From Octopus vulgaris (taxonomy: Eukaryota): 64,000 nt of DNA. The notes under the pieces are model-generated. The model worked only from the letters and a program-made list of their open reading frames with translations, did no database searches and had not been told where the DNA came from. This document shows, piece after piece, positions 13,113 through 60,930 of this stretch. Position 1 is the first letter of the stretch. The number at the start of each line of letters is the position of its first letter. The position numbers and the translations under genes are program-made. Location: NCBI GenBank assembly GCA_951406725.2, contig OX597819.1:46128001-46192000 (forward strand), written 5' to 3'.

Positions 13113-13129
13113 TATATATATATATACAT

Positions 13130-13349
13130 AAAGTTAATCCAAACATGAAAACACAAAGAGAAAACACAACAACGCGTGGATATGGAACAAGTATAGTGTT
13201 ATTGGACGCTCAGGAAAGGAAAGAACGAGGAAAGGAGGATTTAACGTTTCGAGCGGAGCTCTTCGTCAGAAACATGGGAAAGGGAAAGATTCAAGGAAGG
13301 GAAGACAGAGGAAAGAAATGGCCAACGATACACACGCGGTCACATTTTA
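13130..13349 (-). mobile_element. Short non-coding PLE pseudo-LTR-like element (family C) in (TA)n
   Basis: Second copy at 60429-60640; carries a hammerhead motif. Confidence 0.7.
13239..13273 (-). ncRNA. Minimal type I hammerhead ribozyme, canonical core
   Basis: Minus strand gttt-CTGACGA-a-GAGC-tcc-GCTC-GAAAC-GTT-aaat: stem I gttt/aaat, stem II 4 bp, palindromic AC/GT stem III, NUH = GUU. Confidence 0.85.
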
Positions 13350-16751: not shown

Positions 16752-16758
<7 letters not shown>

Positions 16759-16950
16759 TCGCCATGATAGATCGCTAGCCACTAAGCCTTTTCTATTTTC
16801 TCTCCCTGTTTATTTCTGTGTTCCTTTCTGTCGAAGAGCGTAGGCTCGAAACGTAAAAGACTTTCTCAATTCCCGAGCGTTGAACTAATACATATGTTTG
16901 TTGTTTACATACCCGTCTTCGTCTTTTGTTTTTTTTGTAACTTCTCACTA
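16752..16950 (+). mobile_element. Short PLE pseudo-LTR-like element (family B) between (TA)n and (TATC)n
   Basis: Related copies at 24697-24836(+), 25228-25380(-) and 57940-58143(-). Confidence 0.7.
16824..16859 (+). ncRNA. Hammerhead ribozyme-like motif with A6U core
   Basis: cttt-CTGTCGA-a-GAGC-gtag-GCTC-GAAAC-GTA-aaag. Confidence 0.7.
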
Positions 16951-23741: not shown

Positions 23742-24709
23742 GAGGAATTTACATAATAATAACAATGGAATTCTCATGGCACTGCTAATGTTAATTATTA
23801 CGAAAAGTACGAATTGCAACGTCATTCATGTTTCGCTCTCATCAGAGAAGCAAAGACTTTCATTATCGTACTTCGTGAAGTAGCAGTGACAAAAGAATTA
23901 GTAACAAAAGAATCGGGAAACATAAAAATGTACATTCCTGACAGAGAGAAATTGTTTCATGAATAACTGTCATAGAGACGCTATCTTGCGAAATATTTCG
24001 CTCTTCATGCACGAAATACCATGCAAGTCAACTTCAAATCACATCCCACCGAATTACCAAGTAAGGAAATTTTAGTTGGTGACGACCACAATACCATTAA
24101 TTAGAGATCTTTCGAAAAAAAACTAAAGTGAAAACTAAATAACAAGAACAGCGACAAATATTTTAGTCTCCCGCCACCAATTATTTTTTTTTATGTTGAT
24201 GGGATTTTGAATCGATTTACTTTAATGATAAATTCATATCTCAATCGAACCTCTGTAAATATTATTTTCAGCTAATCCTATTTTCGTTGTTGTCATGTGC
24301 CGTACACTTACAGCGCTTTGATGACATTACAAAAAAAACCTTCCCGATAAAAACGCGGATCTTCCCATCGGACGCATCGATCTGACATTCTCACAATGTT
24401 TTCATGACAGAGATATTGAGGTGGTTTGGCATTTCCTTCCGCAAACGTGATACTTCAGAATATGTAATCTTAAAATACAACCTGACAAACAACTGGTAAC
24501 TGCTTATATTGGAAGATTTGCTCAATAAAGCTCTTCACATATAGGCGCTCTGCAACCACATGTTCCAGCTTTCATTCCAACTGTGTGCCACGTTGCGCAA
24601 GTGTCTTCTGATACAACCCTCGACCTGGACAATATCTTCTAAGTGAAATTAGTAGACGGAAACACTCTGGAAGCCCGTCGTATTTATGTATGTATATTTT
24701 CTCTTATTC

Positions 24710-24745
24710 CTTTCTGTTGAAGAGCGTAGGCTCGAAACGTAAAAG
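24710..24745 (+). ncRNA. Hammerhead-like motif, family B (A6U), in element 24697-24836
   Basis: cttt-CTGTTGA-a-GAGC-gtag-GCTC-GAAAC-GTA-aaag. Confidence 0.7.
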
Positions 24746-24836
24746 ACATTCTCACCTTCTCCAGCGTAAAACTAATACACCTGCTTGTTGTTCATACACC
24801 TGTCTTCGTCTTTTGTTTTTCTGTAAATTTCAGCTA

Positions 24837-24888
<52 letters not shown>

Positions 24889-24889
<1 letters not shown>

Positions 24890-25191
24890 GTGCAATCGCC
24901 CAGTGGTTAGGGCAGCGGACTCGCGGTCGTAGGATCGCAGTTTCGATTCCCAGACCAGGCGTTGTGAGTGTTTATTAAGCGAAAACACCTAAAGCTCTAC
25001 GACGCTCCGGCTCGGGGTGGTGGTGATCCCTGCTGTACTCTGTCACCACAACTTTTTCTCACTCTTTCTTCTGTTGGCCTGCTCGCTTAGCCTGCGGGGT
25101 GGCGTCATTTGAAAGCTAAAACAATGCGAAGCGCATTGTGACCAGCGATGTGTAGCAACATCTGATAGCCTGGTCGGTCATGGTGATCACG

Positions 25192-25196
<5 letters not shown>
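24889..25196 (+). mobile_element. SINE family 3, near full length
   Basis: tRNA-like head plus tail ..catctgatagcctggtcggtca.ggtgatcacggtga; the tail also occurs at 45315-45436 (-). Confidence 0.9.
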
Positions 25197-25231
<35 letters not shown>

Positions 25232-25316
25232 GAATTTACACAAAAAAACAAAAGACGAAGACGGGTGTGTAACAGCAAACAGATGTATTAGTTTAACGCT
25301 CGGGAAGTGTGAAATT

Positions 25317-25352
25317 CTTTTATGTTTCAAGCCTACGCTCTTCTACAGAAAG
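25317..25352 (-). ncRNA. Degenerate hammerhead-like motif, family B, in element 25228-25380
   Basis: Minus strand cttt-CTGTAGA-a-GAGC-gtag-GCTT-GAAAC-ATA-aaag. Confidence 0.55.
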
Positions 25353-25395
25353 GAACACAGAAATAAACAGGGAGAGAATATATATATATATATAT

Positions 25396-25660
25396 ATATA
25401 CTTTATTTAAAGCAGCAGAAAATTCAACAAAATCTGTTACTCTGAGCTTCTCGTTGCCGTTCATCAGACAGTTTTTGCTAGAATGGAACCGATATATCAT
25501 CGATTCCATTCTAGCAAAAACTGTCTGATGAACGGCAACGAGAAACTCAGAGTAACAGATTTTGTTGAATTTTCTGCTGCTTTAAATAAAGTATATTACT
25601 CTACCACTGGTATTTGAGTACTCTTTTTTCCACCTTGTTTCACATTTATGTGTTTACTCC

Positions 25661-25662
<2 letters not shown>
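25396..25662 (+). mobile_element. Fold-back (palindromic) hammerhead element, family A, copy 1
   Basis: 25396-25596 is an inverted repeat with about 98-bp arms, 2 mismatches and a 5-nt loop, followed by a 66-bp unpaired tail; flanked by (TA)n on both sides. Confidence 0.9.
25521..25558 (+). ncRNA. Minimal type I hammerhead ribozyme (family A); mirror copy on - strand at 25434-25471 has GAAGC instead of GAAAC
   Basis: ctgt-CTGATGA-a-cg-gcaa-cg-a-GAAAC-tcaga-GTA-acag: stem I ctgt/acag, short stem II with GNRA loop, palindromic stem III ACTC-a-GAGT, AATAAA about 27 nt downstream. Confidence 0.78.
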
Positions 25663-25696
<34 letters not shown>

Positions 25697-25731
25697 ATGT
25701 ATTATGAAGAGAGAACGGGGGAGAGAAAGAG

Positions 25732-25802
<71 letters not shown>

Positions 25803-26466
25803 TAGATGTGTGCATGTATATGTATATATATGCGTCTCTTTTATGTATGTGCTTGACAACCGGTGTTCCGGTGTTTGTTTGTTTACGTCCTGGTCACTTA
25901 CTGACTGGGTGTTGTGGCCGATAGAAATACAAAACTCAAGTACTGAAGTAGATTTTTCTCACTAAAATTTTCGAGACAGTAGCCTTCCATGGCCGTAATC
26001 TTATAACTAATACATTTAAACGATAAAAGATATGTTTCCAAGAGCTTTTCCAATCCAATTCTCTCATGTCTCCTTTTTGACGTTAGATACTCCACTAGAT
26101 GTCTGTCTGTTTGTCATTTTGTGTTTGTTTTTTACTAATCACTAAGTGATGCATTGCTCTGTCAGAGGATGATTTTCTTGCTAGTTCTTCAAATAATGTG
26201 GGGGAAATGTATGAGGAAAAACCATGCCTGATGAAAGTAGGGGGTATTGCATCAAGCGGATGCAAGCATCACTGAGAAGGTTAAGAATTCATTATTCAGC
26301 CATGAGGTCTCGGTTTCAATTCCTCGAACGATCGAAGTCATGTGCGTGAATTTGAAAAGAAGATAAGTTCGTCAGTTAGGCTGTACCTGTCATATAAAGG
26401 TCTAGACTTGGAACATTTGTGTCACTCTAACTGAGAATTATATTAATGGTACATATATGTATGGAA

Positions 26467-30372: not shown

Positions 30373-30789
30373 TGCCTCTAATAAGAGCCTCAATACTTAC
30401 CATATCCAATACTTACCATATCCAGCCTCCAACTCCAATAATTTTTTCTAAATAGATGAAAATAAAATAAAAAATTTCACAAGAAAAAGGAAATGAGATC
30501 TACAACACTTCTTTTTTCTCTCACTCTTTTATCAGGATTTTCTTTCTCTCTGAAATCAAACAATTCTTTCTTGTAATTCTGCCATTTCTGTATTTTAAAC
30601 TCTTGCCTCTTCCATATGCTTTCTGTTCCTTTCTCGTAGAGAGAACTAGATACATAGTCTCTGGATTGTGAAATGAAAAAGTGATGTTTCCTGCAAGATC
30701 AAATTATTATGAATTTGAATACACGTATGAATGTGTGTTTATGTGTGTATCTGATTATTTTAACAACAACAACAATGGACATGAAAAAT

Positions 30790-31232
30790 ATATATCAAGT
30801 AACGTAAAAGCGGTGTTATTGTTTGGGGCTGAGACATGGCGAACAACTGTTAAGTCAAATAAGTAAATACAATCATTCATCAACAGATGCTTGCGTAGTA
30901 TAGTCAAAATTAGATGGCACGAACACATAAGCAATATGGAGCTATGGCAAAGAACAAATGAAGTTTCGATTAGGGAGCAAATATTTAAGAAAAAGTGGAA
31001 GTGGATAGGTAGCACAATTAGAAAAGACACCAAATGTAGCGAAAAGTGCTTTACAGTGGAATCCGAATGGATATAGAAAGAAAGGTAGGCCTAAGAACTC
31101 ATGTCGTAGATCAACACAAAAGGAAAAGAGAAAGGGGGACATTCATGGCAGAGTATAAGTGCAGAAGCGAAAAATTATGCGACATGGAATTCAATTATAA
31201 GTGGCCTATACTTCACGTTGGAGGGTTAAAGG
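30790..31232 (+). mobile_element. Decayed RTE-clade LINE 3' fragment (second family)
   Basis: SNVKAVLLFGAETW, FINRCLRSIVKIRW, ISNMELWQRT, KWKWIG and LQWNPNGYRKKGRPKNS, with stops and a frameshift. Confidence 0.85.
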
Positions 31233-32023: not shown

Positions 32024-32290
32024 ATACTACGCAAGCATCTGTTGATAAATGATTGTATTTACTTATTTGACTTAACAGTTATTCGCCATGTCTCAGCCCC
32101 AAACAATAACACCGCTTTTACGTTACTTGATATATATTTTTCATTTCCATTGTTGTTGTTGTTAAAATAATCAGATACACACATAAACACACATTCATAC
32201 GTGTATTCAAATTCATAATAATTTGATCTTGCAGGAAACATCACTTTTTCATATCACAATCCAGAGACTATGTATCTAGTTCTCTCTACG
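32024..32290 (-). repeat. 267-bp inverted duplicate of 30635-30901
   Basis: Reverse-complement match with about 4 substitutions; also seen as twin ORFs 30681(+) and 32059(-). Confidence 0.95.
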
Positions 32291-34153: not shown

Positions 34154-34225
<72 letters not shown>

Positions 34226-34248
34226 TGCGCTTCCTCTTCATTTTTTCA

Positions 34249-34282
34249 TTCTGAAGAAGGACCAATGATGGAAACGTCAAAG
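34249..34282 (+). ncRNA. Degenerate hammerhead-like motif
   Basis: CTGAAGA-aggaccaatgatg-GAAAC-GTC: core and GUC triplet intact, stems I and II weak. Confidence 0.4.
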
Positions 34283-34434
34283 CATTCCGTCCCCTTGTGG
34301 ACCCATCAAACATTATTATGTACACGTGCTTCTTTATTGTTTTAGTTATTTTAAGATCTTTTCTTCATTTTACTTCTTGCATATATAAACACATACATAC
34401 ATACGTATGTTCATAAATATGTGTGTACAAGTGT

Positions 34435-41077: not shown

Positions 41078-41185
<108 letters not shown>

Positions 41186-41287
41186 GGAGTAAACACATAA
41201 ATGTGAAACAAGGTGGAAAAAAGAGTACTCAAATACCAGTGGTAGAGTAATATGCTTTATTTTAAGCAGCAGAAAATTCAACAAAAT

Positions 41288-41325
41288 CTGTTACTCTGAG
41301 TTTCTCGTTGCCGTTCATCAGACAG
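41288..41325 (-). ncRNA. Minimal type I hammerhead ribozyme (family A), intact core
   Basis: Reverse complement of ctgtCTGATGAacggcaacgaGAAACtcagaGTAacag. Confidence 0.78.
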
Positions 41326-41341
41326 TTTTTTCTAGCAAAAA

Positions 41342-41379
41342 CTGTCTGATGAACGGCAACGAGAAACTCAGAGTAACAG
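41342..41379 (+). ncRNA. Minimal type I hammerhead ribozyme (family A), intact core
   Basis: ctgtCTGATGAacggcaacgaGAAACtcagaGTAacag. Confidence 0.78.
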
Positions 41380-41411
41380 ATTTTGTTGAATTTTCTGCTG
41401 CTTAAAATAAA

Positions 41412-41463
<52 letters not shown>

Positions 41464-44134: not shown

Positions 44135-45255
44135 TCAACTGTGTTACATTGCAGGGTTTTTCTCCTCAATCTTCCTTTTCAAAATACTCCCACAGATGTT
44201 CTATTGGATTTAGATCACGTGACATGGTAGGCCAAGGCAATACTTTTACCTTTTCATCTCATAAAAGCTTAGTCAGCATCTTAGTATATTCAGGGTCATT
44301 ATCTTGTTGGAACATGGAATGTCTTCCTAGTTCCTTGATGGTTTTCAACATTGTTTTCTACAATGTTCTATTGTGACCCAATCAAGTTGATTTTTAGTCT
44401 AGTCAGAAAAAAGAATTTTATTCAAAAAACTCTTTCCTCTAACATAGGTTTCGGCGAATGAAAGACGACTTGATTTATGACTGGTAATGGAAAGAGGCTT
44501 CCTACAAGGAATGCGTCCATGAAGACCACACTGGTTCAAACTTCGGCTAACTGTTTGGCGGATACACTTTTTCCTCTAATAGAAAACGCTTCTTGGGCCA
44601 AAGACGAAGCGGGACGACGCCTGTCATCCATCACGCAACGTTGGATGTGACAAATATCACGGGCAGTTGAAATAGAAGAACGACCTACCCGATGTTTATT
44701 GCTTCGCCGTCCAGTAGCTTTGTACTTCTGAATTACTTTGGCAACTGTGTTTACACTAATATGTATTCGTTTGCTAATTAACTTGTATCCTAAACCATTC
44801 TTGTGCAAATTAAAAATAATTTTCGTCAAATTATCAGACAATTCTTTTCCTTTTTGTGCCATTTTAATCACAATGAAAAATATTTTCACCACAGTACACA
44901 AATCAGAATTCCTGCAGATGCAGGAATTCCTGCAGACCGGTACAAAATGCCCGGAGAAATAACTTATCAGAATTGAAATTATCAGCAATTACCTGAAATT
45001 AGTAAAAAAAAAGTGGATAAAATAGTGAATATAGCAAATTTCCTTTACGGTGTACATATTTTTGAACCGATTGAAAATTAATATTTGTTCATATCTTTGA
45101 AAATGTTTGTTGTTTTGTGTTCCAAATTTGTATAATGTTCCCATGTATAATATATTTTATTCAATATAGATTTCGCTTGATTTCCTTCGATATTATCAGA
45201 GTAATGGCAACTTTACTGAAACTTTTTAGGGTGTACATACTTCTGTGAGATACTA
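44135..45255 (-). mobile_element. Decayed, internally deleted Tc1-like transposon (IR/DR type end)
   Basis: MAQKGKELS..LHKNGLGYKLISK..ISVNTVAKVIQKYK (paired-like HTH), GLHGRIPCRKP, FQQDNDP and WPTMSRDLNPIEHLW; end agtatctcacagaagtatgtacaccc abutting TA at 45255, inner repeat ggtgtacata at about 45049. Confidence 0.9.
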
Positions 45256-49302: not shown

Positions 49303-49349
<47 letters not shown>

Positions 49350-49352
<3 letters not shown>

Positions 49353-49501
49353 CATAAATATACAAAATCTGTTATATATCAGACAGTTTTTGTGAAATTT
49401 CTAGCAAAAACTGTCTGATGGGCAAGGAAACTCAGGTAACACACATGATACGTAAAATATATATTACTCTACCACTGGTATTTGAGTATACCTTGTTTCA
49501 C

Positions 49502-49506
<5 letters not shown>
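49350..49506 (+). mobile_element. Fold-back hammerhead element, family A, copy 3 (deleted/decayed)
   Basis: caaaatctgtta..atcagacagtttttg..ctagcaaaaactgtctgatg..gaaactcag.gtaac..attactctaccactggtatttgagta. Confidence 0.75.
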
Positions 49507-49538
<32 letters not shown>

Positions 49539-57939: not shown

Positions 57940-58029
57940 GGGAAAGTTTACGAAAATAAACAAAAGACGAAGGCAGGTGGAGTACAAACAAACAAATGTA
58001 TTAGTATAGCGCTCAGGAATAGAAAAAAA

Positions 58030-58065
58030 TTTTTACGTTTCGAGCGTACGCTCTTCGACAGAAAG
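58030..58065 (-). ncRNA. Hammerhead-like motif, family B (A6U), in element 57940-58143 within (GATA)n
   Basis: Minus strand cttt-CTGTCGA-a-GAGC-gtac-GCTC-GAAAC-GTA-aaaa. Confidence 0.68.
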
Positions 58066-58143
58066 ATACACAGAAAAAAAAAACAAGGAGAGAAACAAGG
58101 AGAGAAAAAATGCGTGTAGGAGCTAACGATCTATCATGGCGTG

Positions 58144-58235
<92 letters not shown>

Positions 58236-58242
58236 CCTATAT

Positions 58243-59201
58243 TCTTTTATTCTTTTATTCTTTTACTTATTTCAGTCATTTGGCTGCTGCCATGCTAGAG
58301 CACTACCTTTTAGTCGAGCAAATCGACCCCAGGACTTAATTCTTTGTAAGCCTAGTACTTATTCTACCGGTCCCTTTGGCCGAACCGCTAAGTTATGGGG
58401 ACGTAAAGACACCAGCATCGGTTGTCAAGCGATGTTGGGGGTCAAACACAGACACACAAACACACACACACACACACACACATACATATACATATACATA
58501 CATACATACATACATACATACATACATACATACATACATACATACAGTCTGGATGCAAAGAGAACGGAGATAGTGATAAAACTACAAGTAGAGAAGGCTT
58601 TCAGACCCATCTGGTAGGATATCACTTGCATTGCCAGAAGAAGGAAATGCGCAACTGTAGAGGTGCGATTTGAAAGCGAGGAGAAGGCCAGGCAACATTC
58701 GGTAGCCGCCCTGAAAACGGATGAGGTAATACTTCTACCTACTTTTCTTAGAAGACGTGCTTCCTGAGTAAGAGTGGAAGAGATAGCCCGGAGGTAGATG
58801 TCGCCTCGCTGGTGGCTGCAATACTGCTGGATGTAGAAGAGAAGATAGAGGTCCTCCAAGTAACGAGAACATCACCGAAGAATTGACAAGAGTAGACCCT
58901 GGAGATAATCATCCACGCTGCTTCGGAGGACCTTGAAAGAATGGTCGGCACCATAAGAGCGAGCGAGAAGGTGGAATTGAGAGTTATAGAGGAGGGCTGG
59001 AAGACCCAATGTTATAGATGTGGACAGAAAGGCCACATAAGAGCGGAGTGTTGTCCGCCGATTTCAAAGACACCAGCAGTACTACAGGCCCGAAGGAAAA
59101 TCGCACCTCCACTTCCTGAACTGACAAGTGGCAGAGGAAGTACAGTAAGGTGACAAACACAGACACACTCACATAAATATATGTATCTATGAATGTAAAT
59201 G

Positions 59202-60230: not shown

Positions 60231-60930
60231 GGCGCAGGAGTGGATGTGTGGTAAGTAGCTTGCTTACCAACCACATGGTTCTGGGTTCAGTCCCACTGCG
60301 TGGCACCTTGGGCAAGTGTCTTCTACTATAGCCTCGAGTCGACCAAAGCCTTATGGGTGGATTTGGTAGACGGAAACTGAAAGAAGCCCGTCGTATGTAT
60401 GTATAAATATATATATATATATATATATAGTTAATCCAAACATGAAAACACAAAGAGAAAACACAACAACGCGAGGACGTGGAACAAATACAGTATTATT
60501 GGATGCTTAGGAAGGAAGGGAAGAAGAAGGGTTTTACGTTTCGAGCGGAGCTCTTTGTTAGAAACATAGGAAAAGGAAAGATCCAGAGAAGGGAAGACGG
60601 AGAGAAAAAAATCGCCACGGTACACACGCGGTCACATTTTATATATATATGTGTATGTGTGTGTCTGTGTATGCGTGTGTGTGTGTGTATGTGTGTGTGT
60701 ATGTGTGTGTGTGTGTATGTTTGTGTGTCTGTGTTTGTCCCCCTATTATCGCTTGACAACCGATGCCGGTGTGTTTACGGCCCCGTAACTCAGCAGTTCG
60801 GGAAAAGAGACCGATAGAATAAGTACTAGGCTTACAAAGAATAAGCCCTAGGGTCGATTTGCTCGACTAAAGGCGGTGCTCCAGCATGGCCGCAGTCAAA
60901 TAACTGAAACAAGTAAAAGAGTAAAAGAGT
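60231..60930 (+). mobile_element. SINE family 2, full length, with a family C element (60429-60640, -) nested in its internal (TA)n
   Basis: Head at 60231, tail gagtaaaagag at 60930; nested hammerhead 60531-60565 has mutated core CTAACAA. Confidence 0.9.

Follow-up and report, generated by a model that had tools for sequence, protein, structure and literature searches.

The palindromic sequence at 25396-25662 of the window, by which we mean the entire stretch of 64,000 nucleotides analyzed here, is one of three related copies that, judged by their layout, probably belong to a high-copy insertion family of the Penelope-like element (PLE) type. The features recovered are an inverted, 5'-truncated copy placed head to head, a tail at one end only, an AT-rich or (TA)n target and a minimal hammerhead motif in the terminal repeat. 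This layout is that of PLE insertions, and in this respect the link to PLEs made in a preliminary description of the sequence is borne out. We consider the balance to be slightly in favor of an origin by double priming, whereby a PLE dimer primes both target strands from two start sites and the two cDNAs join head to head. The PLE-type insertion family itself is real and ordinary in kind, and its inverted arm is less likely to have arisen by simple fold-back.

Palindromic copies and neighboring elements in the window

A BLAST search with 25396-25662 against its own window recovered c1 (25396-25662, forward strand), c2 (41184-41417, reverse strand) and c3 (about 49345-49512, forward strand), all of which have (TA)n runs on both sides, within which a target-site duplication would be unreadable. 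The window is microsatellite-rich animal DNA, whose SINEs we take to resemble those of octopus. In c1 and c2 alike a hammerhead-bearing unit is paired head to head with a second copy of itself, the arms being respectively 97% and 98.7% self-complementary, and none of the three copies shows a direct tandem arrangement, i.e. the head-to-tail monomers by which non-LTR retrozymes are recognized. In c1, which lies between (TA)n target sequences at 25378-25395 and 25663-25692, the short, tail-less arm (25396-25494, reverse strand) meets the long arm (25496-25596, forward strand, up to the inner 3' end) at a center (25490-25503) that folds on a self-complementary ATAT, with a small asymmetry and an arm mismatch at 25503. 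Only the long arm continues into a 66-bp tail (25597-25662, forward strand), which ends in (TA)n. The real outer end of the short arm may be 25401, its remaining terminal bases coming from the (TA)n target. In c2 the tail (41184-41249) and the long arm (to about 41330) are followed by the short arm (about 41330-41417), and the center, 33 bp shorter than that of c1, is situated at CTAG with the surplus bases on the short arm; the copy differs from c1 by a single deletion of 33 bp between CTAG words and by 4 substitutions. In both copies the tail-less arm ends by the position equivalent to 25596, the partner arm is 66 bp longer and the tails are identical. The third copy is heavily deleted with respect to c1 (17 deletion blocks covering 95 bases, and 9 mismatches), as a result of either old decay or consensus error, and its center, uninterpretable as a fold, fits that of c1 by deletions alone (score 172, versus 170 against c2). 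Thus, of the three different fold points described earlier, those of c1 and c2 stand, and the third is unreadable among the deletion blocks of c3.

The hammerhead predicted at 25521-25558 on the forward strand, in the long arm of c1, is of the minimal type I and comprises stem I, the core, a short stem II with a tetraloop and a palindromic helix III, with a predicted cut after 25554. Our descriptor matched at 25525, 41346 and 41321 and in none of 5000 dinucleotide shuffles of the arm. The mirror motif in the short arm of c1 (25434-25471, reverse strand) has a core change of A15.1 to G at 25447 and is unmatched by this strict descriptor, which likewise misses families B and D and one copy of family C described below. 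A search of 24000-26000 against Rfam gave 43 matches up to an E-value of 10, none at the gathering score and none to a hammerhead, the best being generic hairpin (miRNA) models. In public contigs the hammerhead varies at more than 5% at N7, in loop II, at the base before GAAA and at the edge of stem I, and nowhere in the core. An ATG within the motif was considered as an ORF start and rejected, since the frame that it opens runs for 29 codons before a stop, and the ATG itself varies in 4-20% of the depth. No ORF for a PLE-type reverse transcriptase (RT) or GIY-YIG endonuclease was detected by Pfam in 150 of the 239 complexity-filtered frames of at least 50 amino acids in the window, and motif scans of two metagenome, two viral and two prokaryote collections returned 0 loci.

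Several other elements in the window bear hammerhead-like motifs. Family B consists of short elements embedded in TA/TAGA repeats, at 24697-24836 and 16752-16948 on the forward strand and 25228-25378 and 57940-58150 on the reverse strand, which have a common 3' end and lack an inverted arm; one of them adjoins c1 across an 18-bp TA run. Family C comprises two solo hammerhead-bearing copies on the reverse strand (13127-13347 and 60429-60639; 82% alike), whose 5' ends match and whose 3' ends, located in (TA)n, nearly do; fixed ends of this kind suggest that the template was short and defined. A lone motif at 34221-34390 on the forward strand (family D) has no relative in the window. None of these seven copies carries an inverted arm. 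The window also contains an inverted duplication of 267 bp (30635-30901 and 32024-32290; 98.5% identical, 1122 bp apart). Its left arm continues into frames that we take to resemble the 3' end of an RTE-type LINE, with no Pfam match. There are further a fragment of a Tc1/mariner-type transposase HTH domain (44539-44988, reverse strand; PF25787, E-value 1.1e-12) and a zinc knuckle match (58896-59150, forward strand; PF00098, E-value 7.7e-05) that is probably a retroelement fragment.

Ends, fold points and alleles in public contigs

Public contigs were aligned to 25478-25663 at 85% likeness in 4 of 24 listed runs, the 20 runs left out including a wastewater run that contains the stretch. The runs used, which bear three organism labels, contributed 12,513, 6,070, 4,661 and 3,637 aligned contigs, which are short and come from other individuals. 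Among the rows listed, loose ends running into (AT)n behind 25596 occur in all four runs (at least 101, 41, 45 and 37 contigs), and those behind 25659 in at least three (at least 31, 23 and 30 contigs). The family as a whole therefore has two fixed 3' ends, separated by about 65 bp, which correspond to the outer end of the tail-less arm and the end of the tail. The preliminary description had one arm always longer by about 66 bp; this holds for c1 and c2 and for both ends across the family, with "always" standing for the two readable copies of the window. Loose ends within 25581-25624 in all four runs suggest at least one diverged sister subfamily with a common tail region.

Centers of the c1 type were found in all four runs at single-locus depth (15-210, less than 0.01% of plateau depth), with small indel variants around ATAT, and perfect CTAG folds, recognized by loose ends before 25511, were present in 10 contigs of run X15 and 9 of run X16. 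Three opposite-strand joints (25517|25626, 25518|25584 and 25519|25590) were found among the 10 rows listed, a biased handful of which the other seven are skips and not folds; rows of no given kind (25565-25515, 25585-25537, 25563-25520 and 25540-25499) were not counted as folds. We read the three joints as head-to-head because too little depth lies upstream of 25498, or what lies there is taken up by other contigs, for the alternative piece to fit. In all three the tailed arm begins 66-109 bases downstream of the end of the other arm, so that the tailed arm is the more truncated one in these joints, as it is in c2. The program reported 0 bases of microhomology at all three, a separate count 3, 3 and 0 bases, and both readable folds lie on self-complementary 4-mers (CTAG and ATAT).

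These observations bear on two explanations which we consider far less probable than those taken up in the next section. A non-autonomous DNA transposon (MITE) with long inverted repeats would be short, palindromic, high-copy and TA-flanked, as is the family described here, and palindromic DNA-transposon families do exist, such as the frog Harbinger elements (PMC5625713). The contigs largely refute it, since the termini are not mutual inverted copies, the 66-bp tail having no mirror, and since no one internal structure is fixed, at least two fold classes and three more joints being seen; with the conserved hammerhead motif also against it, we regard it as very improbable. In this respect the earlier argument against a classical MITE with one fixed center is upheld. 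That the palindromes are fold-back chimeras of sequencing or assembly is barely credible. The numerous deletions of c3 do resemble consensus error in a hairpin, but folded contigs and both ends recur in independent public runs that carry three organism labels, and several sites distinguish the arms.

Contigs of runs X1 and X16 extend upstream of 25504, which implies that the unit is a truncation of a longer sequence; the depth at 25499-25505 is 0.7-4.2% of the plateau. The typical 5' edge, roughly estimated by mirroring the 3' depth ramp, is at about 25512-25531 and is sharp in runs X15 and X3. The 5' ends thus seem clustered more narrowly than random truncation would give, a pattern that subfamilies diverging in that zone could mimic.

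The four arms of c1 and c2 differ at five sites of the shared arm and center edge (25503, 25515, 25545, 25583 and 25592 in the numbering of the c1 long arm), of which 25583 is the only one to pair arms by locus, with T in both arms of c1 (25583 and 25409) and A in both arms of c2 (41263 and 41404). At the other four the arms of one locus disagree (25503 and 25545 in c1; the equivalents of 25515 and 25592 in c2), apart from the asymmetry within the c1 center. The change of T to A at 25583 is below 1% in all four public runs, since it does not appear in the 20 rows that reach 1%, at a bin depth of 0.75-2.7 million, and the chance of both c2 arms having the rare A by independent draws is less than 0.01. 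As the long arm of c3 also has four A's at the equivalent site, within a degraded stretch, the allele may be a sub-lineage marker and not private to c2. The preliminary proposals of copy-private variants in both arms and of arms pairing by locus are thus sustained at this site for two copies, by an allele that is rare family-wide, and are tempered by c3 and by the four sites that split arms of the same locus. At 25592 both short arms have T, the c2 long arm has C, and C makes up 73-79% of the family depth; T in the short arms is expected if the base derives from the target primer. The c1 long arm has the minority T, possibly a trace of arm-to-arm conversion or else a plain C-to-T change, and such conversion, offered earlier as an alternative source of arm likeness, may have taken place.

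Origin of the inverted arm

Under double priming each palindrome would be one insertion made of two 5'-truncated, hammerhead-bearing terminal repeats placed head to head. The protein of the element, acting as a dimer as predicted for one PLE studied in vitro, would cut both strands of a (TA)n tract, and each freed 3' end would prime reverse transcription, one at a start site at the tail end and the other at an inner start site. The two antisense cDNAs would extend inward and halt mostly just 5' of the hammerhead, whereupon their 3' ends would either anneal at self-complementary words (CTAG, ATAT) or be united by end-joining, and fill-in would complete the palindrome. Rare alleles common to the arms would mean that both cDNAs were copied from the same RNA or source copy, and the center would later be eroded by deletions and point changes. 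Double priming with head-to-head joining would account for the two 3' ends and the polarity, and, given one source RNA, for the shared allele. It is favored by the two 3' ends running into (AT)n and by the in vitro behavior of the PLE protein PAc, which extends both strands from two start sites, as well as by the T of both short arms at 25592, the rare A in both c2 arms, the differing centers, the siting of both readable folds on self-complementary 4-mers, the greater truncation of the tailed arm and the L1 parallel described below. It is weakened by the lack of a linked RT/GIY-YIG ORF, by a tail of 63-71 bp as against the 30-40 bp published, by the lack of program-detected microhomology at the joints, by the derivability of c2 from c1, and because lopsided joints may be later one-sided deletions and clustered 5' ends are also expected of a fixed master. 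As a general rule for PLEs it is further weakened by the contrast between the 3 of 3 copies with an inverted arm here and 0 of 7 among the other hammerhead-like copies of the window. A stricter form, in which a single dimer on one RNA always primes once per start site and the cDNAs run off near the RNA 5' end upstream of the hammerhead in a strong-stop-like manner, is tentatively put forward as a possibility; if true, a single reaction would yield the inverted pLTR, the tail on one side and the stump size.

The alternative that one or a few palindromic masters were amplified as units by a PLE acting in trans, with centers diverging by direct-repeat deletion at the hairpin base and arms partly converted, appears to us somewhat doubtful. 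Deletion is known to occur at palindrome centers. It is not stated in the accessible portion of PMC7999016. Such a master would fit the derivation of c2 from c1 by one deletion and of c3 by deletions, the CTAG fold recurring in 19 contigs of two runs, the sharp 5' depth edge in X15 and X3 and the fixed ends of the solo families B and C. The self-complementary words double as direct repeats across the palindrome, the lopsided joints are possibly later deletions, and the c1 long arm shows, as a possible conversion trace, the T at 25592 that is seemingly target-derived on short arms. A master of the CTAG type nevertheless cannot yield c1, which holds more element sequence, nor the contigs extending upstream of 25504, and a longer master would be rare, to judge from the low depth at 25499-25505. 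Moreover, the palindrome is bounded on either side by a 3' end of the element itself, and the four arm mismatches mean that conversion was incomplete. The recurrence of the CTAG fold, the single deletion separating c2 from c1 and the unreadable state of c3 also leave the earlier claim that each palindrome was built independently weakly supported.

The preliminary description favored copying of the second arm from the first by fold-back. In the corresponding model (Arkhipova 2013), the nascent strand primes itself or folds back, and resolution by the endonuclease determines where the short end lies. This would explain shared rare alleles directly; in the part of PMC3846280 available self-priming is inferred from palindromes at inverted junctions, and in the accessible text of bioRxiv 2021.04.23.441226 the tail is put down to resolution by the endonuclease. 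The polarity argues against it, because c2 and all three joints have their surplus central bases on the tail-less arm, when fold-back of the tailed arm predicts the opposite and fold-back from the tail-less arm is unable to supply the tail. Furthermore, the CTAG folds, with a spacer of zero, provide no loop from which priming could proceed within the molecule, and the short arms have T at 25592 where the c2 long arm has C. The copy c2 is alternatively a CTAG fold with one change. We hence find fold-back poorly supported and unlikely, while a self-priming variant on an antisense template may be a source of the arm.

Relationship to known elements

Palindromic PLE architecture is already in print, and the mechanism that we infer for it here is testable. 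In the accessible parts of the respective papers, the typical PLE layout has an adjacent inverted pLTR with an optional tail (PMC3846280), and PLE insertions have an inverted 5'-truncated copy, a usually one-ended tail of 30-40 bp and (TA)n targets (bioRxiv 10.1101/2021.04.23.441226). As far as these accounts go, the present family is like endonuclease-bearing (EN+) PLE insertions in its head-to-head inverted copy, one-ended tail, hammerhead in the repeat, AT-rich or (TA)n target and palindromic junction, and unlike them in being only about 230-270 bp long, in having no ORF and in its tail of 63-71 bp. The (TA)n target and the hammerhead hint at the Neptune clade. Hammerheads mark PLE terminal repeats, and truncated PLEs of Schistosoma have dual minimal hammerheads on opposite strands, 100-700 bp apart, for which the available portion of PMC4209133 offers no junction analysis; the opposed minimal hammerheads here are spaced at about 50 bp (c1) and 25 bp (c2). 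The accessible text of bioRxiv 10.64898/2026.07.22.740005 treats truncated PLE ends and retrozymes and not palindromes.

The candidate origins of PLE inverted repeats are self-priming, endonuclease resolution and double priming. In the literature outside subscription papers (e.g. the 2005-2006 PLE reviews) we found neither a description of the family in the window nor an explicit double-priming model for these repeats. A high-copy, short-armed family offers many junctions, whose polarity separates the models. If the host is a cephalopod, such hairpins might also contribute to the dsRNA load, which is reported to be high in octopus (PMC5625713).

The closest biochemical parallel to double priming is PAc, a protein of a Poseidon-clade PLE from Anolis, which in vitro cuts and extends both strands of AT-rich DNA, uses two RT start sites bounding the tail and is a predicted dimer (PMC11167929, accessible part). 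The main text of that paper does not discuss inverted or palindromic insertions, and three of its supplementary text files gave no match. The PAc reaction, although from a different family, resembles the elements of the window in its two start sites bounding the tail and its AT-rich target. In L1, pieces in opposite orientation have been attributed to two ends that were extended independently and then annealed or ligated (PMC11702581). Such twin priming is like the scheme proposed here in that both target ends are primed and the pieces joined oppositely; in L1 the second primer starts internally beside the end of the first cDNA, so that the arms barely overlap (PMC11702581), whereas the two arms of the palindromes in the window run from different fixed 3' ends over a common sequence, and poly(A) is absent.
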